Shown one piece after another: positions 30,014-59,435 of a stretch of DNA of 64,000 bases. Numbering within the stretch: position 1 is the first letter of the stretch; each line of letters opens with the position of its first letter. The translations under genes were made by a program, and so were the position numbers. Origin of the DNA: an uncultured bacterium (lineage in GTDB: Bacteria; Patescibacteriota; Minisyncoccia; Phycocordibacterales; GWA1-40-21); NCBI GenBank assembly GCA_963716205.1, contig OY970290.1:452911-516910 (forward strand), written 5' to 3'. The notes under the pieces were generated by a model. The model did not search any database. It was not told where the DNA came from and saw only the letters and a list, made by a program, of their open reading frames with translations.

Positions 30014-30070
30014 TTGGAGAGCACACACTATCTGGAACTCCGTCTCTGTGGAACTAAGAAAGCGGAAAAA

Positions 30071-31728: not shown

Positions 31729-31733
31729 AGAAT

Positions 31734-32177
31734 TTATTTCTCTAAACCGTAAATGTCTTTCAAAATCTCTCCGCCGTGGGTGGTCGGATCGACTTTCGGA
31801 TACACTTTGAGAATTTTACCGTCCTTGCCTATCAAATATGAAATTCTTTTGGTAAATATTCCTCCGAGCGCGCCGTATTTTTTTATTACTTCTTTTTTCG
31901 GATCGGAAAGTAAGATAAAAGGTAATTTATATTTTTCCTCGAATTTTTTATGGCTCTTCACAGTGTCATGACTCACCCCAAACACTTTCACACCAGCCCG
32001 TTCAAAATCTTTATATGCATCGCGGATGCCGCATGCTTCTGCCGTGCACCCCGGCGTATCATCCTTCGGATAAAAATAAATCAAAACGTAGCTTCCCGCA
32101 TGATATGAGAGCGAATGTTCTTTGCCATTCTGATCAAGAAGTTTGAAATCCGGTGCTTTTGTTCCAATTTCAAGCAT
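31734..32177 (-). CDS. bcp: peroxiredoxin Bcp/PrxQ (thiol peroxidase)
   Basis: APDFKLLDQNGK and the active site FYPKDDTPGCTAEACGIRD. Confidence 0.9.
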   Translation of the reverse strand: MLEIGTKAPDFKLLDQNGKEHSLSYHAGSYVLIYFYPKDDTPGCTAEACGIRDAYKDFERAGVKVFGVSHDTVKSHKKFEEKYKLPFILLSDPKKEVIKKYGALGGIFTKRISYLIGKDGKILKVYPKVDPTTHGGEILKDIYGLEK

Positions 32178-39696: not shown

Positions 39697-40086
39697 TTAT
39701 TGAGATGAGGTAACTGTAGAAGATGCTGAATTGCTACTCACATCAAACGGTGCTATATCAACAACTTTGTTCATTATTGGATCATATAAAACAGCCTTCT
39801 CTGCATCAGAATAAAGCAATACATAATCTCCCGCTTTGGAATTAGCAAAAAATGGCTGGTCTTTCAGTTTTGTTGGATCAGTAATTTTAATTACCGAGGG
39901 AGTCTCCCCTTCCGGCAGAACAATCAGTTTGCCTATCATTTGTATGATGGAATCTGCTTGTTTTTGAGCAACTTCCTGTGGATTATTATTTATCTTGGAA
40001 AGTTCAATGTAAAAAATAATTGATGTACTCGCGGTAAAAATAAGCGCAATGATAAGCACGATATTTATTATTTTTGATTTCGTCAT
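39697..40086 (-). CDS. hypothetical membrane-anchored protein
   Basis: 129 aa. N-terminal TM and a Ser-rich C-terminus. Confidence 0.4.
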   Translation of the reverse strand: MTKSKIINIVLIIALIFTASTSIIFYIELSKINNNPQEVAQKQADSIIQMIGKLIVLPEGETPSVIKITDPTKLKDQPFFANSKAGDYVLLYSDAEKAVLYDPIMNKVVDIAPFDVSSNSASSTVTSSQ

Positions 40087-40160: not shown

Positions 40161-43100
40161 TTATTGCCCTTCTGATGAGGTTGCCGAGGAATCAGTCGTT
40201 GTTGCTTGAGATGAATCATCCGGAGTCGTAGTTGCTGTTGTTATTTGGATATCAGAGGTGGAACTTGCGGTGCTTGTTGCCGTTCCATCAGAAGTCGAAG
40301 TGGCTGTCGAAACAATATCAGTTGTCGTTGCTTGAGATGAATCATCCGGAGTCGTAGTTGCTGTTTCGGAATCAGGCGTCGAAGTTGCAGTGCTTGTTGC
40401 GATTTCCGTTCCTGAATTATCCGGCGCACTCGAGCTTGCTGCCTCTGCCGGAGACGTCGCTGCTGGAAGTGTGTAGTCCGAAGGATAACCAAACGTTTTT
40501 GCATTATTGACTGCAAGAGCAATCCAACTGAAGGTTGTGTCATCAATAGCGGGTTTGTTAAGCATGATCGTAAATCCTGCCGTTGATTTTTTCATAATGA
40601 CATATTGAATATTGTTGTTGAAGATATCTCCGACGGTAGCGGTATCAGCGGCGGGATTGCTCGAAGTATCAAACGTAATGTTTGCACTTACGATTGGATC
40701 TGTAAGATACGGATTGGTGAATGTCACATCAACTGATTGCTGGCCCTTGGCAATAACCGCGAAGCCAGCGGTGTCATTATTGAAGTATGGCCTACCAAAG
40801 AATATTGTGTCTGATTCAAGAGTAATGGCGTCATTCAAAGAACTTATATTATCCACTGTCAAACCTTGCGTTGTTATGCTTGGTGCAATAATTTCAATTC
40901 CGGCGGCAAGGCGATCAACCAAAAGTTCAGATGTCGTATCCGTCGCTTCAGGACCGGTTCCTTGATTTGCCAGGAATTTCGCCAGCACCTGTCTTCCTAT
41001 TGTTTCAGTATTTCCAACATCTTCGATGCCGGCAAATTCACTCAAACTTTCTCCGCTGTAATATCCTTGTTCAACAAAAACCATCACTTGGCTCTGCCCC
41101 GAATTTGGACTCCAGTTGCCGAGTGCTTTGCCAATAACCTCACCCGCTTTTGTGGCTTTCATTGCTTTTCCGGGATCATCAGAAGTCGTCAAATAATCTC
41201 CTGGTTGTATCGGATCCGAACTTGATGAAACATTGACCATAATACGACCATTAAGTGCGATTGGCATTATTTTATCTTCCCCACTCATTGCATTATATCC
41301 AGCGGAAGTAAATTGACCATAGTTGTCGGAAACAACACCGATCACATTTGATGCATATGTCGTGGTAGCTTGAACAAGTTCGGTAATTTCCTGCGGTGAA
41401 TCTGTTGAAACATTTCCTTCCGCATCAGTTCCATATTGTTCAACAGTTGTTGTGCCAAGCACCATAACATCACCATAATCCGTCGACTGTTCAACTGGAT
41501 ACATTTCAGCATAATCAGAAGTTGGCGCACCGCTACAAGTGACAAGTTGATACGCAGTTCCTGATACCGGAGCTTGTGATCCCGTAAGAGTAGCTACGCA
41601 AACACCTTTGATTCTTGCGGCTGTTGACGTACCAAGTGAAACCGCGACTCCTACTGATGTAGTACCAACGCCACCAGCAATAATTGAAACTGTCGTTGTA
41701 CCGGAACTCGAATTTTTTACGCCAATATTAATCGCTGTAACACCGGTGCCACCATTTGCAGTCGTTCCAATATTGATCGTTTGGTTATTATTACCACTTG
41801 CACCAGTACCTATGTTAATAATTTGACCTCCGGTAGATGAGCCAAGTGTAATAGCACCTGTCCCTGTAGTGGAACCGATGACGATTGTGCCATTTGTATT
41901 TGGAGTCATCGTAATTCCACCTGTGCCAGTACCACCATAAATTGTAGTATTTCCTGTTAATGACGTACTGCCAATTTGTATAGCGCCGCTTGTAACATTG
42001 CTGAACAAAAGGTTTGTGGGAGACGTACCGCCATATATGGTTACTACTCCGGTTGCCGCTACTCCGCCAAGAGTCAATGTTCCTGTACCGGTTACAGCAA
42101 AAGTTGAAGCGCCATTACCCGCATTAATATTAACTTTGGTTGCACCCGTAATGTTACCGATGGTAACAGTTCCAGCTATTGCTCCTGTTCCAATATTGAT
42201 GATATTTCCGGTTGCACCTTGAGTACCAATATTTACAGTATTGATTCCTCCGATTCCAACTCCGAGGTTCAAAGTTTCCGCACCTGTCGATGAACCGACA
42301 GTGATAGCACCTGTCTGCCCAGTTCCGCCTATTGTATATGTACCTGATGTTAAAGCCGCGCCATCAGTTATCGAACCTGTTGTTATACCAGTACCTATCG
42401 TTATGGTTGAACCAGCGGCACCTTGTAATAAATAATTTCCTGTCCCCACTGTTTCTGTTATTCCTGTTGCACCGACATTATTTCCAATAGCAATGACATT
42501 ACCGCCAGTACTACCATTGGCAATATTTACTGCCGCATTATTAGAACCGGTATTTATATTTGCTGCAAAATTTGAAGAAACATTCAAATTGACTGCTGCA
42601 CCCGTAGAAGTCAAACCTGCAACAAAAGTTCCCAAATTATTCCACGTTTTAGCTCCATTCACCGATTGAGTTGTTGTAAGGTCAACAAAGTTTTGGGAAC
42701 TTGAACCTGTTCCGCCGTTGGTAATTGGCAAAATGCCCGCGGTAGAAGGCAAGTTGGTTAAGAGTGACCAACTTGGTGTTCCCGCAGCAGTGTTCATTAA
42801 AACCATACCTGTTGTGACACCGGCAGCCAATCTCGCGGGAGCAGGTGTTGAATTTTCATAAATCATATCTCCCACAGTAGTCATAGGATTTGTAAGTTTC
42901 CCATTAAACGTCGTCCAATCAGCGCTTGCCAGACATCCGCTTACAGATCCCGATGCCTGCGGACAGTTAATCGTGAGTGATGATGAAGTTGTTGAAATAT
43001 TAAATGATGTACCGGATGTTCCGACTGCTGTTGTGAATGGTCCCGTATATCCTGCTGCCACTGATGCTGTCAGTGTTCCTGAATTTGTCACCGGTGAATT

Positions 43101-46100
43101 CGTTACAGTATATCCTGTCGGTAGAGAAAGACCGACGGAGGTGACATACGCCAGTGATGTCGAGGCCGAGGATAACAAAAATTGAGAAGTTGATGTGGAA
43201 ATTACATTTCCATTTGGGTCAACTGCCAAAAATGCATTTGAAAGTTTTGAGATGTTCAAATTTTGAGTAGTGGAAGTCCCGATGACTGAAAGTGCAGTTA
43301 CCGGAGTTGTTGTGCCGATGCCGACATTGCCATTCGGTAATATATTGAATCCGACTGTAGAGGTAGAATTAAAAGAAACAAATGGAGACGTCAGTGAGCC
43401 ATTTAACGCAGTATAAGAAATACTTGATGTAGCCAATAAGAAATCAGCTGGATTTGAAGAAAATACATTTCGCATTGCGGAAACGCTTTGAGTTCGTAAA
43501 ACGGTAACGCTATCAAGCTGAGAGATAGGAGTTTGAATCGGAACGGGTGCAGTCCAGGAAGCAAAATTATTGTATGAATCGCTGTAGTGAATAAATGACG
43601 TATTGCCGTATTCATCAAGATAAATTCTCCAATCATTGGCGCTGACCTGTACAAGTGCCGGGGCTTCATAGTTATTCGCTCCCCATCCTGCCCAGTTGCC
43701 GCTTTCCGCAGTGACAAACGGTCCTGTCGGTGAAGAAGAAGTGGCATATTCAATATATTTCGGAGCGGTTTCCTCTTTGTACCAGAGATAATATGTGCTA
43801 CCAATCTTGACCATAAATGGGTCAATCTTGTTTGCTCCAATAACATAAACTGGATTCGACCATGTGGTCATGGCGGCATTTGTCGGGTGCATTTCGTAAA
43901 CACTGAAGGTATTATCGGAACCGTCCGGAGCAATTGAAACATAGGCATGAACAGTTCCGTCCGTATCGACAAAAAGTGACGGTGCCCATGTCCAATAGAC
44001 TGTGGTTGTCGCTGCCGTCGTGGAAGGATTTGTCACATAGCTCCAATTCCTCAGATCAGATGAAGAAGCAAGACCCCACCATTGATTTGAACCAAAGCCA
44101 GAATATGATGGAAAGTTATTATAACTCATCCAATAGACATTATTGTAATAAATAATTGACGGATCTCGGAAACTTCCGGATGGTGGGATATACGGCGGAT
44201 TGGGTTCAAAATCAAAGAAATTAATACCATCAGCACTTGATTCAATCTCCATAGTTTGTGCTGAGAAATTATGCCCGACAAGGATATATACTCCTTGACC
44301 CGCAACAGCAGGATTACCGACCGATGCATCACCCAGCGTGTTCGTGTTTCCACCAAAATATGCAATAGTTGTAGTAGCTGAAGTCAATCCCGCAACAGAA
44401 AATTCAGAGTTTGGAGTACTTGTCCCGACACCAACATTGCCATTGGTAAGAACTGTAAGGAGAGGCGATGTTGTTGAATAAATATTGAGTAGTGGTTGCG
44501 TTTGAGCATATGTTGAAGTCGCTTCAATAGCCAGTTCTGCAGACGGAGTTGTCGACCCGATTCCAATATAACCATTTGAAAAAACTTTAAAATATGAACT
44601 TCCATTTATTCCGTAAATTTCAAGAGGATTTCCTAAAGATGAACTTGCTTGAATATCAACGGCATCATCAGGCGTAGTTGTTCCGATTCCAACACTTCCA
44701 TTTGAAAGAATTATCATTCTTGTATCTGAAGCCAATGTTCCTCCGGTAAAGAATTTCAGAGCGGCTTGTGAATTTGTACTCGTAGCTGTGCCAATATCTA
44801 ATGAATTATCAGAAGCATACACATAAGCATCGTCTGATGTTGCTATGGTAAATGTCTGATCAGCGTTATATCCGTTATTAATACCCAAATCTACATAATT
44901 TGAATTATCATTTCCATTGTTTGCTGTTGCAATATAATCCGCAGAAGATGTCGGAGAGTTTGAAGAATTTTCCAATACCATTTCAACAGATGCGGACGAA
45001 CTGCCTATCACAGCAAACGGAACTACATTACCGTCTCCTAAAACATTCCAGTTTGTTGTCGTGCCAATGGCAATTGATGAACTTGCGGGAAATTCATATA
45101 GAACTGAATTAGTCAAAGTTCCGCTTGATGTTGCATACGAAATATATCCGGTCGTAAAAGGTGATGTTGTGCCAAGTCCCCCACTGCTTGTTCCGCCTGA
45201 TATTCCGAGCGATGATGTCGAAACATATGCAACACCTCCGATTGCTGTTGATGATGCTACGAGAACATATCCATTCGTTCCCGTTGCAATGCTACCAAGT
45301 CCCGATCCTGAAGACCAATATGCCAAATCTCCTGATGTTCCGGAAAGAGCATTTTGTTTCCCATTAAACGTCGTCCAATCAGCGCTTGCCAGACATCCGC
45401 TTACAGATCCCGATGCCTGCGGACAGTTAATCGTGAGTGATGATGAAGTTGTTGAAATATTAAATGATGTACCGGATGTTCCGACTGCTGTTGTGAATGG
45501 TCCCGTATATCCTGCTGCCACTGATGCTGTCAGTGTTCCTGAATTTTTCACCGGTGAATTCGTTACAGTATATCCTGTCGGTAGAGAAAGACCGACGGAG
45601 GTGACATACGCCAGTGATGTCGAGGCCGAGGATAACAAAAATTGAGAAGTTGATGTGGAAATTACATTTCCATTTGGGTCAACTGCCAAAAATGCATTTG
45701 AAAGATTGGAAATGTTTAATCCTTTCGTGGTTGAAGTACCGATGACGGAGAGTGCTGTTGCTGGAGTGGTGGTGCCAATACCAACTGCATATGATGCTAA
45801 TAATTCTCCTCCATAACCAGCGTTTCCGAGTGAGTATCCTATACCAATACCATTATTAAATGTGAAATTGCCCCAGCCATCTGAAGATATTGTTCCTTGT
45901 TGTGTATTGTCAGTTCTTGTTGAACTTATCAGTGTTGTTGAAGCATTCGCTGAAAAATTAAGAAGTCCGTTAGAATAAACTTGATTACCTGGAGCTCCAA
46001 TACCAACATTTCCATTGAAGAATGCGACTGTTCCAGTTGGTGCAGTAACAGAACCAACGGAAAGTGTGGAAACATTTGAAAGCGATTTATTATTGAGATT

Positions 46101-49100
46101 CACTCCGCCAGTCGCACCGGAATACGGAACATAGAGTGATGAGCTGGCAAACGGAATGTATGCAAGCGATGTCGAGGCCGAGAGCGGAAGGTAGGTGGAG
46201 GCGGCTGTTGCCGTCGTCAGGTAATTGGTGATGGTTGAGGTTGAGACGTAGTTGGCGGCGGCCGATGTCGTTGAGAGATATCCAAGCAGCGTGTTGGCAA
46301 ATGATGAAGTTGAGACGTAGTTGGTCAGTGATGAGGTGGTGGCCGTGATGTAATTGGAAGGATTGGAGTTGAGGTAATACAAACTTGAGGATGCAAACGG
46401 AATGTATGCAAGCGATGTCGAGGCCGAGAGCGGAAGGTAGGTGGAGGCGGCTGTTGCCGTCGTCAGGTAATTGGTGATGGTTGAGGTTGAGACGTAGTTG
46501 GCGGCGGCCGATGTCGTTGAGAGATATCCAAGCAGCGTGTTGGCAAATGATGAAGTTGAGACGTAGTTGGTCAGTGATGAGGTGGTGGCCGTGATGTAAT
46601 TGGAAGGATTGGAGTTGAGGTAATACAAACTTGAGGATGCAAACGGAATGTATGCAAGCGATGTCGAGGCCGAGAGCGGAAGGTAGGTGGAGGCGGCTGT
46701 TGCCGTCGTCAGGTAATTGGTGATGGTTGAGGTTGAGACGTAGTTGGCGGCGGCCGATGTCGTTGAGAGATATCCAAGCAGCGTGTTGGCAAATGATGAA
46801 GTTGAGACGTAGTTGGTCAGTGATGAGGTGGTGGCCGTGATGTAATTGGAAGGATTGGAGTTGAGGTAATACAAACTTGAGGATGCAAACGGAATGTATG
46901 CAAGCGATGTCGAGGCCGAGAGCGGAAGGTAGGTGGAGGCGGCTGTTGCCGTCGTCAGGTAATTGGTGATGGTTGAGGTTGAGACGTAGTTGGCGGCGGC
47001 CGATGTCGTTGAGAGATATCCAAGCAGCGTGTTGGCAAATGATGAAGTTGAGACGTAGTTGGTCAGTGATGAGGTGGTGGCCGTGATGTAATTGGAAGGA
47101 TTGGAGTTGAGGTAATACAAACTTGAGGATGCAAACGGAATGTATGCAAGCGATGTCGAGGCCGAGAGCGGAAGGTAGGTGGAGGCGGCTGTTGCCGTCG
47201 TCAGGTAATTGGTGATGGTTGAGGTTGAGACGTAGTTGGCGGCGGCCGATGTCGTTGAGAGATATCCAAGCAGCGTGTTGGCAAATGATGAAGTTGAGAC
47301 GTAGTTGGTCAGTGATGAGGTGGTGGCCGTGATGTAATTGGAAGGATTGGAGTTGAGGTAATACAAACTTGAGGATGCAAACGGAATGTATGCAAGCGAT
47401 GTCGAGGCCGAGAGCGGAAGGTAGGTGGAGGCGGCTGTTGCCGTCGTCAGGTAATTGGTGATGGTTGAGGTTGAGACGTAGTTGGCGGCGGCCGATGTCG
47501 TTGAGAGATATCCAAGCAGCGTGTTGGCAAATGATGAAGTTGAGACGTAGTTGGTCAGTGATGAGGTGGTGGCCGTGATGTAATTGGAAGGATTGGAGTT
47601 GAGGTAATACAAACTTGAGGATGCAAACGGAATGTATGCAAGCGATGTCGAGGCCGAGAGCGGAAGGTAGGTGGAGGCGGCTGTTGCCGTCGTCAGGTAA
47701 TTGGTGATGGTTGAGGTTGAGACGTAGTTGGCGGCGGCCGATGTCGTTGAGAGATATCCAAGCAGCGTGTTGGCAAATGATGAAGTTGAGACGTAGTTGG
47801 TCAGTGATGAGGTGGTGGCCGTGATGTAATTGGAAGGATTGGAGTTGAGGTAATACAAACTTGAGGATGCAAACGGAATGTATGCAAGCGATGTCGAGGC
47901 CGAGAGCGGAAGGTAGGTGGAGGCGGCTGTTGCCGTCGTCAGGTAATTGGTGATGGTTGAGGTTGAGACGTAGTTGGCGGCGGCCGATGTCGTTGAGAGA
48001 TATCCAAGCAGCGTGTTGGCAAATGATGAAGTTGAGACGTAGTTGGTCAGTGATGAGGTGGTGGCCGTGATGTAATTGGAAGGATTGGAGTTGAGGTAAT
48101 ACAAACTTGAGGATGCAAACGGAATGTATGCAAGCGATGTCGAGGCCGAGAGCGGAAGGTAGGTGGAGGCGGCTGTTGCCGTCGTCAGGTAATTGGTGAT
48201 GGTTGAGGTTGAGACGTAGTTGGCGGCGGCCGATGTCGTTGAGAGATATCCAAGCAGCGTGTTGGCAAATGATGAAGTTGAGACGTAGTTGGTCAGTGAT
48301 GAGGTGGTGGCCGTGATGTAATTGGAAGGATTGGAGTTGAGGTAATACAAACTTGAGGATGCAAACGGAATGTATGCAAGCGATGTCGAGGCCGAGAGCG
48401 GAAGGTAGGTGGAGGCGGCTGTTGCCGTCGTCAGGTAATTGGTGATGGTTGAGGTTGAGACGTAGTTGGCGGCGGCCGATGTCGTTGAGAGATATCCAAG
48501 CAGCGTGTTGGCAAATGATGAAGTTGAGACGTAGTTGGTCAGTGATGAGGTGGTGGCCGTGATGTAATTGGAAGGATTGGAGTTGAGGTAATACAAACTT
48601 GAGGATGCAAACGGAATGTATGCAAGCGATGTCGAGGCCGAGAGCGGAAGGTAGGTGGAGGCGGCTGTTGCCGTCGTCAGGTAATTGGTGATGGTTGAGG
48701 TTGAGACGTAGTTGGCGGCGGCCGATGTCGTTGAGAGATATCCAAGCAGCGTGTTGGCAAATGATGAAGTTGAGACGTAGTTGGTCAGTGATGAGGTGGT
48801 GGCCGTGATGTAATTGGAAGGATTGGAGTTGAGGTAATACAAACTTGAGGATGCAAACGGAATGTATGCAAGCGATGTCGAGGCCGAGAGCGGAAGGTAG
48901 GTGGAGGCGGCTGTTGCCGTCGTCAGGTAATTGGTGATGGTTGAGGTTGAGACGTAGTTGGCGGCGGCCGATGTCGTTGAGAGATATCCAAGCAGCGTGT
49001 TGGCAAATGATGAAGTTGAGACGTAGTTGGTCAGTGATGAGGTGGTGGCCGTGATGTAATTGGAAGGATTGGAGTTGAGGTAATACAAACTTGAGGATGC

Positions 49101-50498
49101 AAACGGAATGTATGCAAGCGATGTCGAGGCCGAGAGCGGAAGGTAGGTGGAGGCGGCTGTTGCCGTCGTCAGGTAATTGGTGATGGTTGAGGTTGAGACG
49201 TAGTTGGCGGCGGCCGATGTCGTTGAGAGATATCCAAGCAGCGTGTTGGCAAATGATGAAGTTGAGACGTAGTTGGTCAGTGATGAGGTGGTGGCCGTGA
49301 TGTAATTGGAAGGATTGGAGTTGAGGTAATACAAACTTGAGGATGCAAACGGAATGTATGCAAGCGATGTCGAGGCCGAGAGCGGAAGGTAGGTGGAGGC
49401 GGCTGTTGCCGTCGTCAGGTAATTGGTGATGGTTGAGGTTGAGACGTAGTTGGCGGCGGCCGATGTCGTTGAGAGATATCCAAGCAGCGTGTTGGCAAAT
49501 GATGAAGTTGAGACGTAGTTGGTCAGTGATGAGGTGGTGGCCGTGATGTAATTGGAAGGATTGGAGTTGAGGTAATACAAACTTGAGGATGCAAACGGAA
49601 TGTATGCAAGCGATGTCGAGGCCGAGAGCGGAAGGTAGGTGGAGGCGGCTGTTGCCGTCGTCAGGTAATTGGTGATGGTTGAGGTTGAGACGTAGTTGGC
49701 GGCGGCCGATGTCGTTGAGAGATATCCAAGCAGCGTGTTGGCAAATGATGAAGTTGAGACGTAGTTGGTCAGTGATGAGGTGGTGGCCGTGATGTAATTG
49801 GAAGGATTGGAGTTGAGGTAATACAAACTTGAGGATGCAAACGGAATGTATGCAAGCGATGTCGAGGCCGAGAGCGGAAGGTAGGTATTCAAAAGATTCT
49901 GCAAATCTGTTTGATTAGAAAGTGTTCCAGTAATTGCACCCCATGCAACAGTTGCACTTGAACTTGAAGCAAACGCCCAATCATAACCTGTAGGCGACGT
50001 CGATGATGCTTCCAAAAATTGTCCGGGGGTACCAGTTGCTATCGATGCAAGTGATCCTGTGTTCGTCCAATATGAAAGTCTTCCACTCGTTCCCCCACCA
50101 ATAAGAAATTGGGATGATGATGCAACAGGAATGTATGCAAGCGAAGTGGAAGCCGAGAGTGGTAGATATATTGCCGCCGCAGAAGTTGTAGAAAGGATAC
50201 TATTGATAAAATTATCGGAAATTTTCAAACCGGAAGATGATTTTGACAATGTTGAACCATCGAGAATCAGAGAAAAAGTTGAACTGGATAAATTGAGACC
50301 TTCACCATCGGTAGTATAAGGAACAACATCGCAATTCAAATCTGTTGGCAAACAATTTGGATTTAAGGTAGCTCCTGGAGCATAAAGATCGGCAAAAGTA
50401 GTATTCGAACAAAACAAACCCGACAAGAGAAAAAAGACAAATAAATTTATTTTTATAATAAAAAGAATATTCTTTTTTTTAGCAATAGCAACTCTCAT
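40161..50498 (-). CDS. giant secreted/surface repeat protein (3445 aa) with 80-aa tandem repeats, tail-fiber-like repeats, GH43-like beta-propeller and acidic Ser/Thr-rich C-terminal tail
   Basis: Signal peptide or TM at the N-terminus. About 16 identical 80-aa repeats (LPLSASTSLAYIPFASSSLYYLNSNPSNY...). Recurrent NGNVGIGTTTP-type motifs. A central domain (DPSIIYYNNVYWMSY...GSTYYLWYKEE) is typical of five-bladed beta-propeller glycoside hydrolases and lectins. Gly/Thr-rich beta-helix-like region. C-terminal ATSTATSTPD... tail. Confidence 0.75.
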   Translation of the reverse strand: MRVAIAKKKNILFIIKINLFVFFLLSGLFCSNTTFADLYAPGATLNPNCLPTDLNCDVVPYTTDGEGLNLSSSTFSLILDGSTLSKSSSGLKISDNFINSILSTTSAAAIYLPLSASTSLAYIPVASSSQFLIGGGTSGRLSYWTNTGSLASIATGTPGQFLEASSTSPTGYDWAFASSSSATVAWGAITGTLSNQTDLQNLLNTYLPLSASTSLAYIPFASSSLYYLNSNPSNYITATTSSLTNYVSTSSFANTLLGYLSTTSAAANYVSTSTITNYLTTATAASTYLPLSASTSLAYIPFASSSLYYLNSNPSNYITATTSSLTNYVSTSSFANTLLGYLSTTSAAANYVSTSTITNYLTTATAASTYLPLSASTSLAYIPFASSSLYYLNSNPSNYITATTSSLTNYVSTSSFANTLLGYLSTTSAAANYVSTSTITNYLTTATAASTYLPLSASTSLAYIPFASSSLYYLNSNPSNYITATTSSLTNYVSTSSFANTLLGYLSTTSAAANYVSTSTITNYLTTATAASTYLPLSASTSLAYIPFASSSLYYLNSNPSNYITATTSSLTNYVSTSSFANTLLGYLSTTSAAANYVSTSTITNYLTTATAASTYLPLSASTSLAYIPFASSSLYYLNSNPSNYITATTSSLTNYVSTSSFANTLLGYLSTTSAAANYVSTSTITNYLTTATAASTYLPLSASTSLAYIPFASSSLYYLNSNPSNYITATTSSLTNYVSTSSFANTLLGYLSTTSAAANYVSTSTITNYLTTATAASTYLPLSASTSLAYIPFASSSLYYLNSNPSNYITATTSSLTNYVSTSSFANTLLGYLSTTSAAANYVSTSTITNYLTTATAASTYLPLSASTSLAYIPFASSSLYYLNSNPSNYITATTSSLTNYVSTSSFANTLLGYLSTTSAAANYVSTSTITNYLTTATAASTYLPLSASTSLAYIPFASSSLYYLNSNPSNYITATTSSLTNYVSTSSFANTLLGYLSTTSAAANYVSTSTITNYLTTATAASTYLPLSASTSLAYIPFASSSLYYLNSNPSNYITATTSSLTNYVSTSSFANTLLGYLSTTSAAANYVSTSTITNYLTTATAASTYLPLSASTSLAYIPFASSSLYYLNSNPSNYITATTSSLTNYVSTSSFANTLLGYLSTTSAAANYVSTSTITNYLTTATAASTYLPLSASTSLAYIPFASSSLYYLNSNPSNYITATTSSLTNYVSTSSFANTLLGYLSTTSAAANYVSTSTITNYLTTATAASTYLPLSASTSLAYIPFASSSLYYLNSNPSNYITATTSSLTNYVSTSSFANTLLGYLSTTSAAANYVSTSTITNYLTTATAASTYLPLSASTSLAYIPFASSSLYYLNSNPSNYITATTSSLTNYVSTSSFANTLLGYLSTTSAAANYVSTSTITNYLTTATAASTYLPLSASTSLAYIPFASSSLYVPYSGATGGVNLNNKSLSNVSTLSVGSVTAPTGTVAFFNGNVGIGAPGNQVYSNGLLNFSANASTTLISSTRTDNTQQGTISSDGWGNFTFNNGIGIGYSLGNAGYGGELLASYAVGIGTTTPATALSVIGTSTTKGLNISNLSNAFLAVDPNGNVISTSTSQFLLSSASTSLAYVTSVGLSLPTGYTVTNSPVKNSGTLTASVAAGYTGPFTTAVGTSGTSFNISTTSSSLTINCPQASGSVSGCLASADWTTFNGKQNALSGTSGDLAYWSSGSGLGSIATGTNGYVLVASSTAIGGVAYVSTSSLGISGGTSSGGLGTTSPFTTGYISYATSSGTLTNSVLYEFPASSSIAIGTTTNWNVLGDGNVVPFAVIGSSSASVEMVLENSSNSPTSSADYIATANNGNDNSNYVDLGINNGYNADQTFTIATSDDAYVYASDNSLDIGTATSTNSQAALKFFTGGTLASDTRMIILSNGSVGIGTTTPDDAVDIQASSSLGNPLEIYGINGSSYFKVFSNGYIGIGSTTPSAELAIEATSTYAQTQPLLNIYSTTSPLLTVLTNGNVGVGTSTPNSEFSVAGLTSATTTIAYFGGNTNTLGDASVGNPAVAGQGVYILVGHNFSAQTMEIESSADGINFFDFEPNPPYIPPSGSFRDPSIIYYNNVYWMSYNNFPSYSGFGSNQWWGLASSSDLRNWSYVTNPSTTAATTTVYWTWAPSLFVDTDGTVHAYVSIAPDGSDNTFSVYEMHPTNAAMTTWSNPVYVIGANKIDPFMVKIGSTYYLWYKEETAPKYIEYATSSSPTGPFVTAESGNWAGWGANNYEAPALVQVSANDWRIYLDEYGNTSFIHYSDSYNNFASWTAPVPIQTPISQLDSVTVLRTQSVSAMRNVFSSNPADFLLATSSISYTALNGSLTSPFVSFNSTSTVGFNILPNGNVGIGTTTPVTALSVIGTSTTQNLNISKLSNAFLAVDPNGNVISTSTSQFLLSSASTSLAYVTSVGLSLPTGYTVTNSPVTNSGTLTASVAAGYTGPFTTAVGTSGTSFNISTTSSSLTINCPQASGSVSGCLASADWTTFNGKLTNPMTTVGDMIYENSTPAPARLAAGVTTGMVLMNTAAGTPSWSLLTNLPSTAGILPITNGGTGSSSQNFVDLTTTQSVNGAKTWNNLGTFVAGLTSTGAAVNLNVSSNFAANINTGSNNAAVNIANGSTGGNVIAIGNNVGATGITETVGTGNYLLQGAAGSTITIGTGITTGSITDGAALTSGTYTIGGTGQTGAITVGSSTGAETLNLGVGIGGINTVNIGTQGATGNIINIGTGAIAGTVTIGNITGATKVNINAGNGASTFAVTGTGTLTLGGVAATGVVTIYGGTSPTNLLFSNVTSGAIQIGSTSLTGNTTIYGGTGTGGITMTPNTNGTIVIGSTTGTGAITLGSSTGGQIINIGTGASGNNNQTINIGTTANGGTGVTAINIGVKNSSSGTTTVSIIAGGVGTTSVGVAVSLGTSTAARIKGVCVATLTGSQAPVSGTAYQLVTCSGAPTSDYAEMYPVEQSTDYGDVMVLGTTTVEQYGTDAEGNVSTDSPQEITELVQATTTYASNVIGVVSDNYGQFTSAGYNAMSGEDKIMPIALNGRIMVNVSSSSDPIQPGDYLTTSDDPGKAMKATKAGEVIGKALGNWSPNSGQSQVMVFVEQGYYSGESLSEFAGIEDVGNTETIGRQVLAKFLANQGTGPEATDTTSELLVDRLAAGIEIIAPSITTQGLTVDNISSLNDAITLESDTIFFGRPYFNNDTAGFAVIAKGQQSVDVTFTNPYLTDPIVSANITFDTSSNPAADTATVGDIFNNNIQYVIMKKSTAGFTIMLNKPAIDDTTFSWIALAVNNAKTFGYPSDYTLPAATSPAEAASSSAPDNSGTEIATSTATSTPDSETATTTPDDSSQATTTDIVSTATSTSDGTATSTASSTSDIQITTATTTPDDSSQATTTDSSATSSEGQ
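42901..43245 (-). repeat. intragenic near-identical duplication, copy A (about 345 bp)
   Basis: Identical to 45361..45705 except for one mismatch (GTC vs TTC at 43087/45547). Flanking sequence is homologous but diverged. Confidence 0.8.
45361..45705 (-). repeat. intragenic near-identical duplication, copy B
   Basis: See copy A. The two copies encode the duplicated protein segment ...INCPQASGSVSGCLASADWTTFNGK..., flanking the beta-propeller domain. Confidence 0.8.
46120..49888 (-). repeat. tandem array of about 16 copies of a 240-bp unit with essentially perfect nucleotide identity (in-frame, 80 aa each)
   Basis: The unit beginning CAAACGGAATGTATGCAAGCGATGTCGAGGCCGAGAGCGGAAGGTAGGTGGAGG recurs at an exact 240-nt period (for example 46149, 46389, 46629...). 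By eye the copies are identical and only the first and last are diverged. Confidence 0.85.
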
Positions 50499-50660: not shown

Positions 50661-51914
50661 TCATTTTTTAAATCCTTTAAACTCTTTTTCGACATCATGT
50701 TCTATCACCTGCAAATACGTTTCGAGCTTGTTAAGAAGTTCTGTTTCTTGATCAGTAAGTTCACGCTCATTCTTTGTTTTTTGTAAAAAATCAATACGAT
50801 CATTTATTTCTTTTCGTATATAATCAAAATCCTTGTATAAAGTGGATTCAGCCTCAAAAACCTTTTTTGATATCTTTTTCTCCAGACGGGAAAAGCGGTA
50901 CAGGAGGTACCAGATGAGGATAAGAATGAGGAGAACAATGAGGATAAATGTACTGTTGTAAGTGAAATAAGTAAGTAGGAGTGTTTCGATCCTTGCAAAA
51001 CCTTGCTCTGTCACTGTGAGGAAAAGAGGCGAAGTCAAAGGACTTTTCATTCCAAAGCTTTCTACTTCTCCATAAAGTTTGTATGTTCCGTATGTGAGCT
51101 TCTCCGGCCAGACCATCGAGAAGGTGCCTGATGGATTCACCGTGACTTTCTCAGTTGACGTCGCTCCGTTTTCATTGACCAGGAAAAGATCTGCGGTAAA
51201 TGTTGTTGTAGAAGTTGTACTTGAAGCGATAAGTGAGGAGGTCGCCAGTGCTCCATCCACCTCAAAGGTGTTACCTTCCGTTACCTGTGCCGGAAAGAGG
51301 GTGATATGCAAAGATGGGAATAGCATTTCCTCGGCTATTGTTGAAGTACTCGTAATAATGATTGAAACTCCACTCGGGATGACCGGAACGTATGTTTGTT
51401 TGACCTCAAGCAGATTGAATGATGCCGGCGTACTGCCTGTAAATACATTCGTTCCGTATCCATCATTGGCGCGGACAACTGCCGAAGAGAAAATGACTGA
51501 TGCGATGCCGGCTTTTTTAACTTGAAAAACAATGCTCAGAATTTTGCCCGCAGTGCCGGTAAAGCCGGGGGTTGGCACTCCGCCGTCAAACGATACGGTG
51601 CCGGCACTATTGGAAAAGGAAGGATCCTCAACCCAGAGAGAAAATATAGAATCCGATTTGCTGACTGACATGACTTCCAAGAGATTACTGGGAAAACTAA
51701 CAGTGACTTCGGCATCGTTAATTGCCGTTGATTGAGAATCAACGAGAACATTAAGGGTAAATATGTTTCCTGTGGTGAAATATCCTGAAGAAGGATTGAA
51801 AGACAGGGTTGCTGCATGAATCTGATCTACAATAAAAAAATTAAGCAGAATGAGAACGCCGAAAAATATATACTTGCAGATAGCCTTTTTTTTATTTACA
51901 TATTCCATGTTCAA
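50661..51914 (-). CDS. membrane-anchored cohesin-like domain protein (signal peptide, cohesin-like module, Ig-like region, TM, cytoplasmic coiled-coil tail)
   Basis: N-terminal module ATLSFNPSSG...NVLVDSQ...AEVTVSFPSNLLEVMSV...FSLWVEDPSFSNSAGTVSFDGGVPTPGFTGTAGKI... is shared by five proteins in the locus and resembles cohesin type I topology. C-terminal TM plus a Lys/Glu-rich tail. Confidence 0.55.
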   Translation of the reverse strand: MNMEYVNKKKAICKYIFFGVLILLNFFIVDQIHAATLSFNPSSGYFTTGNIFTLNVLVDSQSTAINDAEVTVSFPSNLLEVMSVSKSDSIFSLWVEDPSFSNSAGTVSFDGGVPTPGFTGTAGKILSIVFQVKKAGIASVIFSSAVVRANDGYGTNVFTGSTPASFNLLEVKQTYVPVIPSGVSIIITSTSTIAEEMLFPSLHITLFPAQVTEGNTFEVDGALATSSLIASSTTSTTTFTADLFLVNENGATSTEKVTVNPSGTFSMVWPEKLTYGTYKLYGEVESFGMKSPLTSPLFLTVTEQGFARIETLLLTYFTYNSTFILIVLLILILIWYLLYRFSRLEKKISKKVFEAESTLYKDFDYIRKEINDRIDFLQKTKNERELTDQETELLNKLETYLQVIEHDVEKEFKGFKK

Positions 51915-52525
51915 TTGATTTTTTGCTTTTTTCTTAATCTGATGGCTATTATAATAAGAACAGTGCTGATAAACAATAATATAACTATGCCGGCAATAAC
52001 TAAAAATCTATTGATTGGTTTTTTTATAACGGATATGGATGTTGGTTCAAGCCACGGATTGACGCGTGTTCCCAAGCCATCGTTGAGAAAAACAGAAGAA
52101 GTGTCCAGAAAATCAATTTTTGTTGTGCCAGATTTTTTTGCAATAAAATAAATTCTGAATACTTCCCCATTTTGGCCGAGAAAACCTCCCGGTATGCCGC
52201 CGACAAAAGTTATCTGCCCGGTATTATTATGAAAAAGTGGCGCAACCGGCCAGAGTGTGAAGATTGATGTAGCGGTGTTAATGCTTTGAACTTGAAGTGC
52301 ATTTTTATCAAATACGACTGTTCCATCAATCGTATTCATTGATGTATCCGTGGAAGAAATTTTCAAATCAACAACAAAAGTACTTCCATTATATACTTGT
52401 TGGCTACCTGAACTCAAAGTGAGTGTTGCAGCTGCCCGAGCAGAGGAAGGTATGAATAAAAATTGAGTTGCAATCAATGTGATAGCGGTAATGAAAAATA
52501 TTTTTTTGTTGAAATTGAAAATCAT
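51911..52525 (-). CDS. membrane-anchored cohesin-like domain protein (short)
   Basis: 204 aa. Signal peptide, the same cohesin-like module (AATLTLSSG...VVDLKISS...FTLWPVAPLFHNNTGQITFVGGIPGGFLGQNGEV...) and a C-terminal TM anchor. Confidence 0.55.
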   Translation of the reverse strand: MIFNFNKKIFFITAITLIATQFLFIPSSARAAATLTLSSGSQQVYNGSTFVVDLKISSTDTSMNTIDGTVVFDKNALQVQSINTATSIFTLWPVAPLFHNNTGQITFVGGIPGGFLGQNGEVFRIYFIAKKSGTTKIDFLDTSSVFLNDGLGTRVNPWLEPTSISVIKKPINRFLVIAGIVILLFISTVLIIIAIRLRKKQKIN

Positions 52526-52537
52526 ATTGAAGTTATA

Positions 52538-53620
52538 TTATTGTGCGAGAACTGGATTATATCCGGGCGTCGTATGACCCCACTGCGAAAGCATGATAGA
52601 AAAAGAAATTGAATCAACTTCCCCATCTTTGACTATAGCGCTTATGTAAGGATTTTTATACGGCGGTTTCTCATGCCAATAATACAATAAAATGGAAAAA
52701 TCAACCGTATCAACAATGTGATCGTGATTCAGATCAGCACTATCATATACGGGGGAAGAGCTTATTGGCGATAAAAAACTGCCTCCTCCGCCTCCGCCAC
52801 CGCTCACGCTTCCTCCGCCGCCATTATTACTGCCTGATGCAGCTTGGGCAGTGAATGATTGCGTTGCAACAGATCTTCCTGTTCCATAATATGCAACGAG
52901 TTTGAAATAATAATTTCCTGGATTTGGAACGGTTGCAGTCAAAATGTCATTAAAACTCTGCCCCGGTGTCAGGAATTTTGCCGCGGTGGAATCAAAAATA
53001 TTTCCCGGATCGCCACATGACTGCGTTGGATCCGTCACCACGCACCATTCATATTGATATTCCGTGCCGACTGATCCTTCGTTGGTAATATTTATATTTG
53101 CAGTAATTGCCGGCACGACAAGATTCCCCATCGACTGAATTAAAACTTGCGGCGGAGATGGTCGAAGTGCACACTGAAGCCAATCTGTTTGCACATTACA
53201 ATTATCGCAGGAAAAATTAATTCTCCCCGCATTTGTTCCAGGAGTTCCCGCGATTCCTGTAAATGTTCCGCTTGCATTGATTATTGCGCCCGAAAAATTA
53301 ATCCACCCGAGATGCGATGACCACGCATATCCGCCGAGCTGTCCAAGACAATTATTCGTCACGCCGGTACTGCTTGCCGGAGAAAGATTGATCCAGCCAT
53401 ACGGACCGCTCCATGCATAGCCAGTGAGCGCAGTGTCAGTAACCTGCACATTACATCCTTGACAGCCAAAATTTATCCAGCCTAAATTTTCTCCCCATGC
53501 ATAGGTAGTATTTGAATTAATCGTGCCATCGGTTTCAGATGCAAAAGTGAATGACGAAAAAGAAAAAATAAAAAGTATAATTATCAAAGCAAGAAAAAAT
53601 TTCGTTTTATTTTTTATCAT
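52538..53620 (-). CDS. secreted repeat protein with C-terminal dockerin domain
   Basis: Signal peptide. Repeats YAWGENLGWINFG, YAWSGPYGWINLS and YAWSSHLGWINFSG. Gly-rich linker. Two dockerin-type Ca-binding segments (DLNHDHIVDTVDFSILLYYW and AIVKDGEVDSISFSIMLSQW). Confidence 0.65.
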   Translation of the reverse strand: MIKNKTKFFLALIIILFIFSFSSFTFASETDGTINSNTTYAWGENLGWINFGCQGCNVQVTDTALTGYAWSGPYGWINLSPASSTGVTNNCLGQLGGYAWSSHLGWINFSGAIINASGTFTGIAGTPGTNAGRINFSCDNCNVQTDWLQCALRPSPPQVLIQSMGNLVVPAITANINITNEGSVGTEYQYEWCVVTDPTQSCGDPGNIFDSTAAKFLTPGQSFNDILTATVPNPGNYYFKLVAYYGTGRSVATQSFTAQAASGSNNGGGGSVSGGGGGGGSFLSPISSSPVYDSADLNHDHIVDTVDFSILLYYWHEKPPYKNPYISAIVKDGEVDSISFSIMLSQWGHTTPGYNPVLAQ

Positions 53621-56156: not shown

Positions 56157-57086
56157 TTATTTTTTCTTCTCAATGAAATCTTTGAAGTCAGCGATATGCT
56201 TTCTGACATTTTCTATGACTTCAATTGAGCCCGGCATTTTTTTGAGTTTCTTGTCTTTTTCCAAGACATCGAGCTGCGCATTCACATAATCGTTGAAATA
56301 ATTGAATTTCGTATTCGCAACTCTGTTGATATGCAAAATCATCTGCGCCATTTCGTTTTTCGTCTTGTATCTTTTGACGGTCATTCTTCCGATAAAGAAA
56401 AACAATACGATTAAAAGAAGGCATACGATTGCAAAGACGAGAAAAATATTAAAATTGAATCCGCCAATCGTCATCAGAAATGGAGATGTTGTTGTCGCGC
56501 ACGCAGATGGTGAACTGCTCGCAATAGATTGAGCAACTGGCACTATTGCTGTCGTTGTCGCAGTCGTCGTTGCGGTCGTCTGTGCCACTGCTTTTGTAAT
56601 AATGAACTGTCCTTTTCCAAGCGAAAGCGGCAAGCTTGTTCCGGTGCCGTCGTTTGCAAGAACTGAACCTGAATCAAACGAGATATCCGCTTTTCCGGGA
56701 ACTTTCGGAATAAAAGTAATAGAAAGTATTTTTCCATTTGAACCCATAAAACCCGGATTGAGAACGATACCCTCAAAATTGACCGAGCCATCGCTATTGG
56801 AAAAAGTCGGATCAGCTGTCCAGAGCGATATGATGGATCCTACTTTGGAAATATACGAGACACTGAAATTTTTTGGAGAAAACGATACGGATCCTGACAC
56901 AGCATTCATTGATTCATCAGTGCTTGAAACATATACATCAACTGTGATCGGCGATCCCGCACTATAGGTGCCGGATGATGGAGAAAATGTAAGCGATGCG
57001 GCGAAAGCAAAAAACGGAAAAAGACCGATAATCAATCCTGCAAGAAATATTTTTCGGTATGACAATTTTATTTGTGTTTTTTCCAT
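56157..57086 (-). CDS. membrane-anchored cohesin-like domain protein
   Basis: Signal peptide, cohesin-like module (ASLTFSPSSGTYSAGSPITVDVYVSST...SLWTADPTFSNSDGSVNFEGIVLNPGFMGSNGKI...), a Thr/Ala linker, a TM and a cytoplasmic tail. Confidence 0.55.
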   Translation of the reverse strand: MEKTQIKLSYRKIFLAGLIIGLFPFFAFAASLTFSPSSGTYSAGSPITVDVYVSSTDESMNAVSGSVSFSPKNFSVSYISKVGSIISLWTADPTFSNSDGSVNFEGIVLNPGFMGSNGKILSITFIPKVPGKADISFDSGSVLANDGTGTSLPLSLGKGQFIITKAVAQTTATTTATTTAIVPVAQSIASSSPSACATTTSPFLMTIGGFNFNIFLVFAIVCLLLIVLFFFIGRMTVKRYKTKNEMAQMILHINRVANTKFNYFNDYVNAQLDVLEKDKKLKKMPGSIEVIENVRKHIADFKDFIEKKK

Positions 57087-57961
57087 ATGAATTTTCTATA
57101 CAGCAACAGAAAAATAATGACTAGGATAAGTATAAACCAAATATCCGGATTTTCATAGACTGGCAATGAATGCACCGGGCTAATTTCCTCGATTCTTTCA
57201 GTGCCGGTTTTACTGACTGCTTTGACATAAATATAGCTTTGCAAATTTTGGTCTGTCAGCACATACGGGCTTGTCACAACAATCCATTTTGAAAAATCAA
57301 ATATGCGGTATTTCGTTTCCTTCACTTCATAATGATCGATACCGCTTCCTTTATCGCTCGCTGCAAAAGCGACGAAAAATTTCCCGTCAAATACGTTTGG
57401 ATCGCTGCCGACCTCCGGTACGAATGATTCCGGCGGTTGGTTATCTTTGACCAACGGCACTTTGACTCCATTGGTATTTCCGCTTTCGGAAACAGAAAAT
57501 GAAAAATCGGAAACCGTGAGCGAAATTTCGCTGCCGGAGCCGTCATTTCTCAAAAGCTGTCCGTTTGTTACGGAAATATTTCCGGCACCCGCTGCTTGCG
57601 CGGTAAAGACGAGCGAAAGTATTTTTCCCGTCGATCCCTCGTAGCCACCAGGCGTGATTCCCGAAAAAATAACGCCGTTTGCCGTGCTTGTCGGCGCATC
57701 AATCCAAAAATTGACGAGTGAATTTCCGTCTCGAATCTCATTCAATTGTAAAAGATTGGAAGGATAAACGACTGTTCCGCCAACTGCATTGGCATTTTCT
57801 CCTTGCGTGTTCAAAAGAATATCGACTTCGAATTGATCGCCTGCATGGATATTCTCTGCCGACGAACTCGCGATAAATTCGGCACCGAATGAAAACTTCG
57901 GAACAAAAATGAAAAGGGAAATAAGAAATGGAAATAGAATTTTGTAATTATGGCATTTCAT
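57068..57961 (-). CDS. membrane-anchored cohesin-like domain protein
   Basis: Signal peptide, cohesin-like module (AEFIASSSAENIHAGDQFEVDILLNT...VNFWIDAPTSTANGVIFSGITPGGYEGSTGKI...), an Ig-like region and a C-terminal TM. Confidence 0.55.
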   Translation of the reverse strand: MKCHNYKILFPFLISLFIFVPKFSFGAEFIASSSAENIHAGDQFEVDILLNTQGENANAVGGTVVYPSNLLQLNEIRDGNSLVNFWIDAPTSTANGVIFSGITPGGYEGSTGKILSLVFTAQAAGAGNISVTNGQLLRNDGSGSEISLTVSDFSFSVSESGNTNGVKVPLVKDNQPPESFVPEVGSDPNVFDGKFFVAFAASDKGSGIDHYEVKETKYRIFDFSKWIVVTSPYVLTDQNLQSYIYVKAVSKTGTERIEEISPVHSLPVYENPDIWFILILVIIFLLLYRKFIWKKHK

Positions 57962-57962
57962 A

Positions 57963-59420: not shown

Positions 59421-59435
59421 TGGGTTTATTTTATT

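Follow-up and report, generated by a model that had tools for sequence, protein, structure and literature searches.

The stretch analysed here (the window) comprises 64,000 nucleotides of contig OY970290.1 (assembly GCA_963716205.1, positions 452,911 to 516,910), and all coordinates below are window positions. One minus-strand open reading frame (ORF) at 40161-50498 runs uninterrupted across 3445 codons. We propose that it encodes a giant secreted, cell-anchored fibre of a Patescibacteria (candidate phyla radiation, CPR)-type bacterium, assembled from the building blocks of phage tail fibres and tailspikes, and that this probably trimeric, tailspike-like fibre binds and degrades glycans on the surface of a host. 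A probability of about 0.6 is given to this reading, with higher confidence in the anatomy of the protein and lower confidence in its role. The features of the protein and of related genes in the window are listed in Table 1.

A predicted GH43-like propeller with an intact catalytic triad

Homology, fold and active-site residues support the identification of residues 2070-2339 as a divergent glycosidase similar to glycoside hydrolase family 43 (GH43) with an intact Asp/Asp/Glu triad. Searching a collection of 5.8 billion proteins returned 61 homologues of the propeller, with a best E value of 3.5e-65 and 30-47% identity. They include Streptomyces and Kitasatospora proteins that are named "glycoside hydrolase family 43 protein" by NCBI and carry an AbfB/CBM42 domain, and the Streptomyces GH43+CBM42 proteins were 35-41% identical to the propeller. 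The homologues P0002, P0003, P0004, P0012, P0015, P0035 and P0149 scored above the Pfam gathering score for GH43; passing homologues with E values of 1e-40 to 1e-61 reached 47.8, 46.3, 53.1 and 49.5 bits, compared to the cut-off of 32.2.

When a profile of 57 homologues was used, the best solved structure was that of SaAraf43A (PDB 3AKF). In the alignment of the profile with 3AKF, three conserved acidic columns landed on D20, D135 and E196, the catalytic residues of SaAraf43A (PMC12493170). Mutating the aligned catalytic residues abolishes activity in SaAraf43A and AtAbf43C (PMC12493170). The triad columns are invariant or at least 90% conserved across the 57 homologues, including the phage and CPR-fibre versions, and the giant protein carries D2112, D2226 and E2278 at these positions, as their codons confirm.

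The AlphaFold2 (AF2) model of the propeller had a mean predicted local distance difference test score (pLDDT) of 82.8, exceeding 90 over residues 31-300 of the segment (~270 residues), and was all β. In a Foldseek search against the PDB, the top 35 matches were all GH43 enzymes, with xylosidases and arabinanases among the best (E values of 1e-10 to 1e-8, best 2.7e-10, probability 1.00), and enzymes of GH159 and GH32, which have the same class of fold, came next. An identity as GH32 was considered and dropped in favour of GH43 on the basis of the homologues, the family profile and the fold search. It had been suggested by the first PDB matches of the propeller in phmmer, which were weak matches to GH32 β-fructofuranosidases, and GH32 is a member of the broad five-bladed fold class of GH43.

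An earlier note on this DNA had proposed a GH43-like five-bladed propeller from peptides at residues 2112 (DPSIIYYNNVYWMSY), 2233 (GSTYYLWYKEE) and 2290 (WRIYLDEYGN). All three peptides were found between the two duplicated copies described below, and the proposal was borne out by the homologue search, the profile, AF2 and Foldseek. The structure prediction gave the GH43 fold rather than a different fold without a catalytic site, and the catalytic Asp and Glu residues that the note had suggested looking for were present. The propeller is probably active.

Duplicated modules around the enzyme cassette

Two copies of one module flank the propeller and the tail-fibre-like region preceding it. A direct repeat of 350 nt (42896-43245 and 45356-45705) is identical at 349 positions, confirming the near-perfect duplication that the earlier note had located correctly with a start 5 nt too late (42901 and 45361). 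The offset is 2460 nt, or 820 codons, and is in frame. The repeat corresponds to residues 2419-2534 and 1599-1714, and its sole mismatch, at 43087/45547, is non-synonymous (T2471 versus K1651). Since the homology continues for about 32 codons further upstream in the protein (nt 43246-43346 and 45706-45806), the repeated module is about 150 residues long, and the ~115 residues described previously represent only its near-identical part. Those 32 codons contain 33 nucleotide differences, with 16 codons changed synonymously and 8 non-synonymously. The divergence inside the module therefore drops sharply, from 34% of nucleotides to 0.3%. Gene conversion would be the simplest account of this step, and the alignment of the copies and their flanks thus backs the recent conversion that had been suggested. 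The pattern fits an old duplication which was kept by selection and recently homogenised over the C-terminal three quarters of the module.

The same arrangement was found in another protein. A HMMER search of 1.84 billion representatives with residues 1715-2384 as query yielded 166 proteins at E values of 1e-30 or lower, of which P0148, an 1850-residue, Patescibacteria-like fibre protein encoded on a 0.68-Mb contig, was by far the best (E value of 1e-116). P0148 is 49% identical across residues 1928-2407 of the giant protein and has the N-terminus in common with it (FAD[IL]YAPGATLNP); it also contains a glycine-rich domain and Peptidase_S74. Its propeller lies between two copies of "ALSVIGTTTTSGLNISNL(S/A)N(T/G)FLAVDANGNVVATTS", which is the flanking module of the giant protein, and its own pair of flanks is about 90% identical to each other. 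Because P0148 has the same order, module-GH43-module is a conserved design and no assembly accident, and the misassembly named earlier as a possible source of the duplication is unlikely. The giant protein is accordingly "chimeric" in the sense of a mosaic of modules; it is not a one-off fusion, as a GH43 cassette between modules has likewise been kept in at least one more fibre protein (P0148). A further relative, P0149 (1391 residues), combines GH43 and S74 with a surface Ig-like domain.

The flanking module appears to be nearly an orphan outside the giant protein and P0148. A homologue search with residues 1455-1714 gave 10 weak partial matches (best E value of 4.6e-9), and phmmer found zero copies of the module in the 80 CPR loci described below.

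As a side observation, residues 370-446 of P0148, upstream of the GH43 domain, resemble a GDSL/SGNH esterase (AFGDSITNGSGG) at 24.5 bits in Pfam, below the threshold. With this stretch, a single fibre would carry two modules acting on carbohydrates, like some phage spikes, which both deacetylate and cleave.

Phage relatives of the propeller

The propeller matched phrog_18920, annotated as "tail protein" (E value of 7.7e-25), and the minor tail proteins of five Propionibacterium freudenreichii phages with 26-29% identity. Relatives were present on 29 IMG/VR viral contigs. P0004 is encoded on a 56-kb contig bearing a GpA-type terminase and a tape-measure gene, and the gene of P0002 adjoins an SU10-type adaptor gene. 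The C-terminus of P0001 is a K1-lyase C-terminal domain and that of P0002 a C1q domain. A motif resembling VPYSGATGGVNLNN, which the giant protein carries after its repeat array, is also found in P0001.

The gene of P0004 (L001, 4539-6113, phage contig logan:SRR14092357_59689) has a terminase, a 595-residue ORF (perhaps a portal) and a 90-residue ORF on one side and a 381-residue ORF on the other. This puts it among the head genes, with the tape-measure gene about 8 kb downstream, an unusual site for a tail enzyme. Because of this location, and because the C-terminal domain of the giant protein resembles capsid decoration proteins, some GH43-like phage proteins may decorate the head and not the tail.

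Architecture of the giant fibre

The N-terminus looks like a Sec-type signal, as read from the residues. It is followed, after a short Cys-containing segment, by an array of tandem units that were 100% identical with zero indels according to Tandem Repeats Finder (TRF). A tandem array had been noted before with units of 80 residues; the array stands, with a period of 82 residues (246 bp). The units are rich in Ser, Thr, Ala, Leu and Tyr, and the ~1340 residues encoded by the array include only one Lys or Arg and three Asp or Glu. We infer that the array acts as a stalk or spacer. The GC content of 0.51 and GC skew of +0.48 at 46-50 kb are due to this array. Its perfect identity means that it expanded very recently or is continuously homogenised, and cells may differ in the number of copies. 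The relative at locus L004 also contains arrays of related Ser/Thr/Ala/Tyr units, which are longer but imperfect.

Beyond the array, the motif x-G-x-[VI]-G-[IV]-G-[TSA]-x-x-P occurs six times, at residues 1498, 1572, 1936, 1978, 2022 and 2392, in agreement with the recurrent NGNVGIGTTTP-like motifs noticed before. The ~230-residue domain in the middle region (residues 1715-2069) is common to many large proteins, whose matches in the HMMER search covered residues 9-261 of the query, and this region matched phrog_18345, "tail fiber protein", with an E value of 2.5e-5. PHROG tail or tail-fibre families matched three segments of the giant protein; together with the gp12-like C-terminal domain below, these matches support the tail-fibre-like modules claimed in the earlier note. 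When the protein outside the array, also divided into five segments, was scanned against Pfam and NCBIfam, GH32N came up below threshold and HYR and Sipho_tail as noise, and the region of residues 1455-2040 had no meaningful match to the PDB by sequence. Promoter and terminator scans around both ends of the gene were at chance level.

The region that follows the second module copy (residues 2535-2993) consists of 20% Gly and 20% Thr; its hydrophobic residues alternate, and its sequence is periodic at about 11 residues. It had no match in Pfam or, by sequence, in the PDB. This period was the sole pointer to the Gly/Thr β-helix of the earlier note, and a β-helix or β-prism shaft is plausible. 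The composition of this region and that of the acidic Ser/Thr tail (27% Thr, 21% Ser, and 15 Asp or Glu against one Lys or Arg) were as originally described.

The AF2 model of the last folded region (residues 2960-3330) had a pLDDT of 81 and showed two domains with a disordered linker between them. The predicted fold of the first domain, residues 2994-3155, resembles the C-terminal fragment of phi29 gp12. Peptidase_S74 (PF13884) was absent from the giant protein in Pfam scans. The motif S-D-Y-A-E (S2994, D2995, E2998) marks the start of the gp12-like domain; its form across homologues is S/A/P-D-[YL]-[AS]-E, and D-x-x-E is found in all homologues covering it. An acidic pair of this D-x-x-E type reportedly lies at the cleavage site of gp12 as well (Xiang et al. 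2009), and the likeness is a lead only. Trimer folding of gp12 depends on its C-terminal domain, which acts as an intramolecular chaperone and is removed by cleavage afterwards (PMC3357383), and mature gp12 ends at residue 691 (PMC6542822).

The second domain of the model is a putative β-sandwich similar to H-type lectins. Among 53 homologues of the C-terminal region, eight matched Pfam H_lectin and two matched XM1_gp53_minor_capsid. The earlier note had placed the propeller at the tip of the fibre, which does not hold, as it lies about 1100 residues from the C-terminus with four more regions after it. The terminal glycan-binding module, if any, is more likely the lectin-like domain, on the basis of the model, than the propeller.

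Distribution of the C-terminal module in CPR bacteria

Residues 2960-3330 had 76 homologues, most of them without a Pfam domain. Few of these have a source name, and those that do are from Patescibacteria or Parcubacteria. The C-terminal module was then scanned across 185,579 species genomes, giving 140 confirmed loci, and the best 80 of the 140 are the 80 loci referred to throughout. Nearly all of the 80 are labelled as CPR bacteria (Nomurabacteria, Paceibacterota, Saccharibacteria, Levybacteria, Minisyncoccia). The module ends ORFs of 600 to more than 3800 residues, many of which start with signal peptides. The closest locus, L004, with 56% identity, shares the general layout of the giant fibre and encodes a signal peptide, tail-fibre motifs, long arrays, a shaft, the C-terminal module and an acidic tail; a DUF5011 domain is added and the propeller is absent. 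Five complete members of the fibre family had no enzymatic domain in Pfam.

Several loci (for example, L043, L045, L052, L060, L072 and L076) are labelled "uncultured Gammaproteobacteria", "Pseudomonadales", "Pseudobdellovibrionaceae" or "Acutalibacteraceae". These labels are either mislabelled or contaminated bins, or hints at hosts co-binned with CPR cells.

Table 1. Features of the giant fibre and related genes in the window.
Feature	Residues	Position	Strand	Basis
Whole giant-fibre ORF, 3445 residues and stop		40161..50498	-	Open reading frame
Putative Sec signal peptide or signal anchor (MRVAIAKKKN, hydrophobic stretch, TFA before D)	1-36	50391..50498	-	Read by eye from sequence; N-terminus common to P0148
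Cys-containing N-terminal segment	37-110	50169..50390	-	Sequence
Tandem array, unit 246 bp/82 residues, 15.2 copies		46147..49886	-	TRF
Post-array fibre segment with VPYSGATGGVNLNN motif and first GNVGIG motif	1455-1564	45807..46136	-	Sequence
Flanking module, copy 1	1565-1714	45357..45806	-	Repeat comparison
Tail-fibre-like middle region: GDLAYW...GYVLV motif, ~230-residue domain, three GxVGIGTxxP units	1715-2069	44292..45356	-	phrog_18345 match, homologue search, motifs
GH43-like five-bladed β-propeller (predicted)	2070-2339	43482..44291	-	Homologues, profile, AF2, Foldseek, PHROG
D2112 (FRDPS), GH43 general-base position	2112	44163..44165	-	Invariant column D73; aligned with SaAraf43A D20
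D2226 (KIDPF), GH43 pKa-modulating Asp position	2226	43821..43823	-	Column D187, at least 90% conserved; aligned with SaAraf43A D135
E2278 (YEAP), GH43 general-acid position	2278	43665..43667	-	Column E239, at least 90% conserved; aligned with SaAraf43A E196
Flanking module, copy 2	2385-2534	42897..43346	-	Repeat comparison
GDMIY tail-fibre motif, then Gly/Thr/Asn/Ile-rich region	2535-2993	41520..42896	-	Composition, periodicity
Domain like phi29 gp12 C-terminal autochaperone and phage decoration proteins	2994-3155	41034..41519	-	
Putative H-type-lectin-like β-sandwich	3244-3329	40512..40769	-	
Acidic Ser/Thr/Ala-rich tail with 49-nt internal repeat	3330-3445	40164..40511	-	Composition, repeat search
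Membrane-anchored ORF, 129 residues, directly downstream of the giant gene		39697..40086	-	tblastn
Second tail-fibre-like protein, at least 1027 residues, possibly running past the window end		60904-63987	-	Pfam, motifs

Genomic context

The window contains RNase P RNA, eight scattered tRNAs, LepA, LeuRS, TsaD, Hsp20 and PrsW. No phage or contractile-system genes were found among 20 neighbouring ORFs that were scanned; the neighbours that could be assigned were LepA, tRNAs, LeuRS, PrsW, Hsp20 and surface or membrane proteins with cohesin domains or Ig-like domains. Judged by these neighbours, the giant gene is chromosomal and lies outside any phage structural module.

The 129-residue ORF directly downstream, which has an N-terminal membrane anchor, showed 48-60% identity by tblastn to ORFs located downstream of the fibre genes in L037, L039, L041, L067 and L071. 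It had no Pfam match, and from this conserved position it may be a fibre-specific partner or assembly factor. The second tail-fibre-like protein of the window contains GNVGIGT/GDVGIGT motifs, an acidic Ser/Thr tail and Peptidase_S74 (E value of 1.1e-13; SDERLK). Its gene has an internal duplication of 293 nt with 91% identity (62314-62606 and 63154-63446). The giant protein ends in SSEGQ, the second protein in SSTGQ and P0148 in TSTGQ, with the last two residues alike.

Two sets of minus-strand genes, at 50661-53620 and 56157-60986, encode cohesin proteins that have signal peptides and C-terminal transmembrane segments with coiled-coil tails (50661, 51911, 56157, 57068, 57963). Dockerin-like repeats end the proteins at 52538 (DLNHDHIVDTVDFSILLYYW) and 59436 (DLNGDCKVNLVDFSIAAYWY). 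Homologues of the cohesin and dockerin genes adjoin related fibre genes in L025, L037, L039, L046, L065 and L079, and this recurrence suggests that a surface-display cluster of cohesins and dockerins is conserved alongside the fibres.

Elsewhere in the window, a low-GC island was observed at about 26000-32000 (0.33-0.36 versus ~0.42), starting at tRNA-Ser and tRNA-Glu (26444-26679). The island carries genes for an AAA_15/AAA_21 (AbiEii-like) ATPase (26737-28188) and a HEPN/DUF4145 protein (28249-29160), and looks like a small acquired defence island.

Comparison with known systems

The nearest system described so far, and a precedent for adhesins of the tail-fibre type on cells, is that of the mosaic adhesive trimer (MAT) fibres of Bdellovibrio bacteriovorus, surface-displayed, intertwined tail-fibre-like homotrimers with S74 and non-S74 subfamilies (Caulton et al. 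2024, PMC10769870). MAT fibres, which are displayed on the surface of a bacterium living on bacteria, and the giant fibre are alike in having a chromosomal gene, a signal peptide (putative in the giant fibre) and phage tail-fibre-like modules, and a recurring motif ending in P-x-x-x-L in the giant fibre resembles the loop motif of MAT fibres. In MAT fibres, the signal peptide precedes a conserved β-rich N-terminal domain of about 130 residues; the giant protein starts with a signal-like N-terminus. MAT fibres are capped either by a Peptidase_S74 chaperone or by exchanged adhesive domains, lectin folds among them, and the window likewise holds the S74-ended protein at 60904-63987 and the non-S74 giant. 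Their size is about 1000 residues, whereas the giant protein has 3445 with a perfect array of 15 units. The part of the report available describes adhesive tips and no glycosidase domain for MAT fibres, while the giant fibre has a GH43-like domain within its shaft. The V-G-I-G-T-T-x-P-x-x-x-L motif of the giant protein is one residue longer before the Pro than the V-G-G/N-pi-x-x-P-x-x-x-L of MAT fibres, and its six copies have Ile or Val at position 3 in place of Gly or Asn (PMC10769870). The chaperone-like domain of the giant protein is of the phi29 gp12 structural type, not S74 as in the S74 MAT fibres.

In K1F endosialidase, as predicted for the giant protein, the catalytic domain is a β-propeller (PMC3357383), and the giant protein is linked to phage tailspikes by GH43-like relatives in phage minor tail proteins. 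It differs from phage spikes in being, most likely, no virion part, and in its putative Sec signal, its place on the chromosome and a spacer longer than 1300 residues. The catalytic folds are also different, being a GH43 five-bladed propeller in the giant protein, a pectate-lyase-like β-helix in gp12 and a sialidase in K1F. In contrast to phi29 gp12 and K1F, a lectin-like domain and an acidic tail come after the chaperone-like domain.

SaAraf43A from Streptomyces avermitilis (GH43_26 with CBM42; PDB 3AKF-3AKI) and the propeller have the five-bladed fold and the aligned Asp/Asp/Glu residues in common. Unlike SaAraf43A, the propeller is below the Pfam GH43 threshold, lacks CBM42 and is embedded in a fibre instead of forming a free secreted enzyme, and the SaAraf43A structure was reached only through the family profile.

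Large surface proteins proposed for host recognition are known from patescibacterial epibionts, for example Absconditicoccaceae (PMC13059738). Like the giant protein, they are longer than 1500 residues and bear adhesion-type domains together with signal peptides or membrane-spanning segments, though the domains themselves are other ones. The available part of that paper mentions no protein of tail-fibre design that combines GH43 with a chaperone like that of gp12 (PMC13059738). No direct precedent for CPR tail-fibre-like proteins, or for GH43 propellers in CPR fibres or phage tails, was found in the literature searched. The giant fibre builds on what is known of MAT fibres, phage depolymerases and giant CPR surface proteins, and overturns none of these ideas.

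Proposed mechanism and alternative explanations

By analogy with phage tailspikes, the gp12-like domain would nucleate trimerisation of the shaft, a task for which the paralogue at 60904-63987 would use S74. The domain might then be cleaved between S2994 and D2995, which is speculative. The 82-residue array would hold the distal part about 1300 residues away from the membrane of the tiny cell. The lectin-like domain and the fibre modules could attach to a glycan layer on a host or partner cell, and from this layer the GH43 domain could trim pentose or furanose-type residues in the style of a phage depolymerase, giving access to the surface, freeing sugars, or both. Gene conversion would keep the flanking modules near-identical, and through these flanks homologous recombination could remove or swap the 2.46-kb enzyme cassette without breaking the frame. 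We extend this, tentatively and with considerable doubt, to the idea that the homogenised 150-residue modules are "docking" junctions which let the ~670-residue enzyme cassette (tail-fibre knob plus GH43) be inserted, excised and exchanged in a cell-borne tailspike. The idea draws on the in-frame offset of 2460 nt (820 codons) and on the same pair of junctions around GH43 in P0148.

Several results weigh against the proposed glycan-degrading fibre. The propeller of the giant protein had no match to PF04616 in Pfam even at an E value of 10, and nothing was found in NCBIfam; its only Pfam match was GH32N at 16.8 bits, compared to a cut-off of 22.1. Since its own sequence is below every Pfam and NCBIfam threshold, the GH43 assignment is transitive and structural, and a conserved triad is no proof of catalysis. 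The GH43-like domain was found in none of the 80 related CPR loci and is thus no general feature of the fibre family; giant fibres with such a C-terminus are common in CPR bacteria, and the enzyme cassette is the unusual part. The gp12-like domain had no Pfam match to Peptidase_G2 or S74 (E values up to 10) and no match to the PDB by sequence, either as a protein or as a profile. Because it was recognised by structure only, with phage decoration proteins scoring nearly as well, its cleavage is speculative, and such cleavage would release the lectin-like domain, which fits poorly with placing that domain at the tip. The assumption about which end of the fibre faces the cell is carried over from MAT fibres.

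The same domains could also be read as a tethered enzyme for nutrient scavenging, or for remodelling of the cell's own envelope or matrix, with no role in host recognition. Patescibacteria rely on imported sugars, the nearest named relatives of the propeller are Streptomyces GH43+CBM42 proteins typical of plant-arabinan degradation, and the nearby cohesin-domain and dockerin-like proteins recall cellulosome display. We regard this as unlikely, because the proteins most identical to it belong to fibres and phage structures and are not free enzymes, the remaining polypeptide is tail-fibre/tailspike machinery with a lectin-like end, and no carbohydrate-uptake or catabolic operon adjoins the gene; the two roles are not mutually exclusive. 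A catalytically silent, lectin-like propeller in a pure adhesin would agree with a sequence too divergent for a direct Pfam GH43 match, and many five-bladed propellers are lectins. The MAT fibres, as far as the available text goes, bear binding tips and not enzymatic ones (PMC10769870). This explanation has a low probability in our view, given that D, D and E, the canonical residues, fill the three positions, in columns that are invariant or at least 90% conserved among the 57 homologues, and align with residues whose mutation abolishes the activity of SaAraf43A and AtAbf43C. Purifying selection on the triad would be hard to explain without catalysis.

An origin as the tail fibre of a prophage, tailocin or extracellular contractile injection system is suggested by the matches to PHROG tail families, phage minor tail proteins and IMG/VR contigs and by the resemblance of the C-terminal domain to the phi29 gp12 autochaperone. 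It is nevertheless very improbable: the giant protein starts with a putative Sec-type signal of a kind absent from phage fibres, the 20 scanned neighbours are mostly housekeeping genes or cohesin-domain membrane proteins without phage or contractile genes, the GC content outside the array matches that of the genome, and the C-terminal module is found in giant ORFs, many with signal peptides, in 80 CPR genomes. We attach equally little weight to the possibility that the 350-nt duplication, and perhaps also the 15-copy array, is an assembly artefact. Sequence with 349/350 identity and 3.7 kb of perfect tandem repeats is prone to assembler errors, the exact giant protein was not found in the public collections searched, and the copy number of the array, as given by the assembly, is uncertain. 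However, the reading frame is kept through both junctions across 10.3 kb, and identity decays into a synonymous-rich stretch within the module, as it would in real paralogous copies. The order module-GH43-module is present independently in P0148, with its own ~90% identical flanks, and the L004 relative likewise has long repeat arrays.

Significance

Apart from type IV pili, little is understood of how CPR cells recognise and grip their hosts, and the giant fibre is a concrete candidate for this function. It unites three features of phage infection machinery, i.e., a likely glycan-cutting enzyme, a lectin-like domain and a tailspike-type assembly domain. The analysis defines an unannotated C-terminal module that is widespread in CPR bacteria, in at least 80 genomes, and documents a GH43-related clade common to Streptomyces enzymes, phage tail proteins and CPR fibres. 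The substrate of the GH43-like domain could point to the surface polysaccharide of the host. If the enzyme is active, episymbionts would use phage-style depolymerase fibres on their own surface. If the docking idea is also true, these ultrasmall cells would retool a phage-derived depolymerase fibre to suit the glycan coats of different hosts, and a population would contain cells that carry the cassette alongside cells that lack it, with array lengths that vary.

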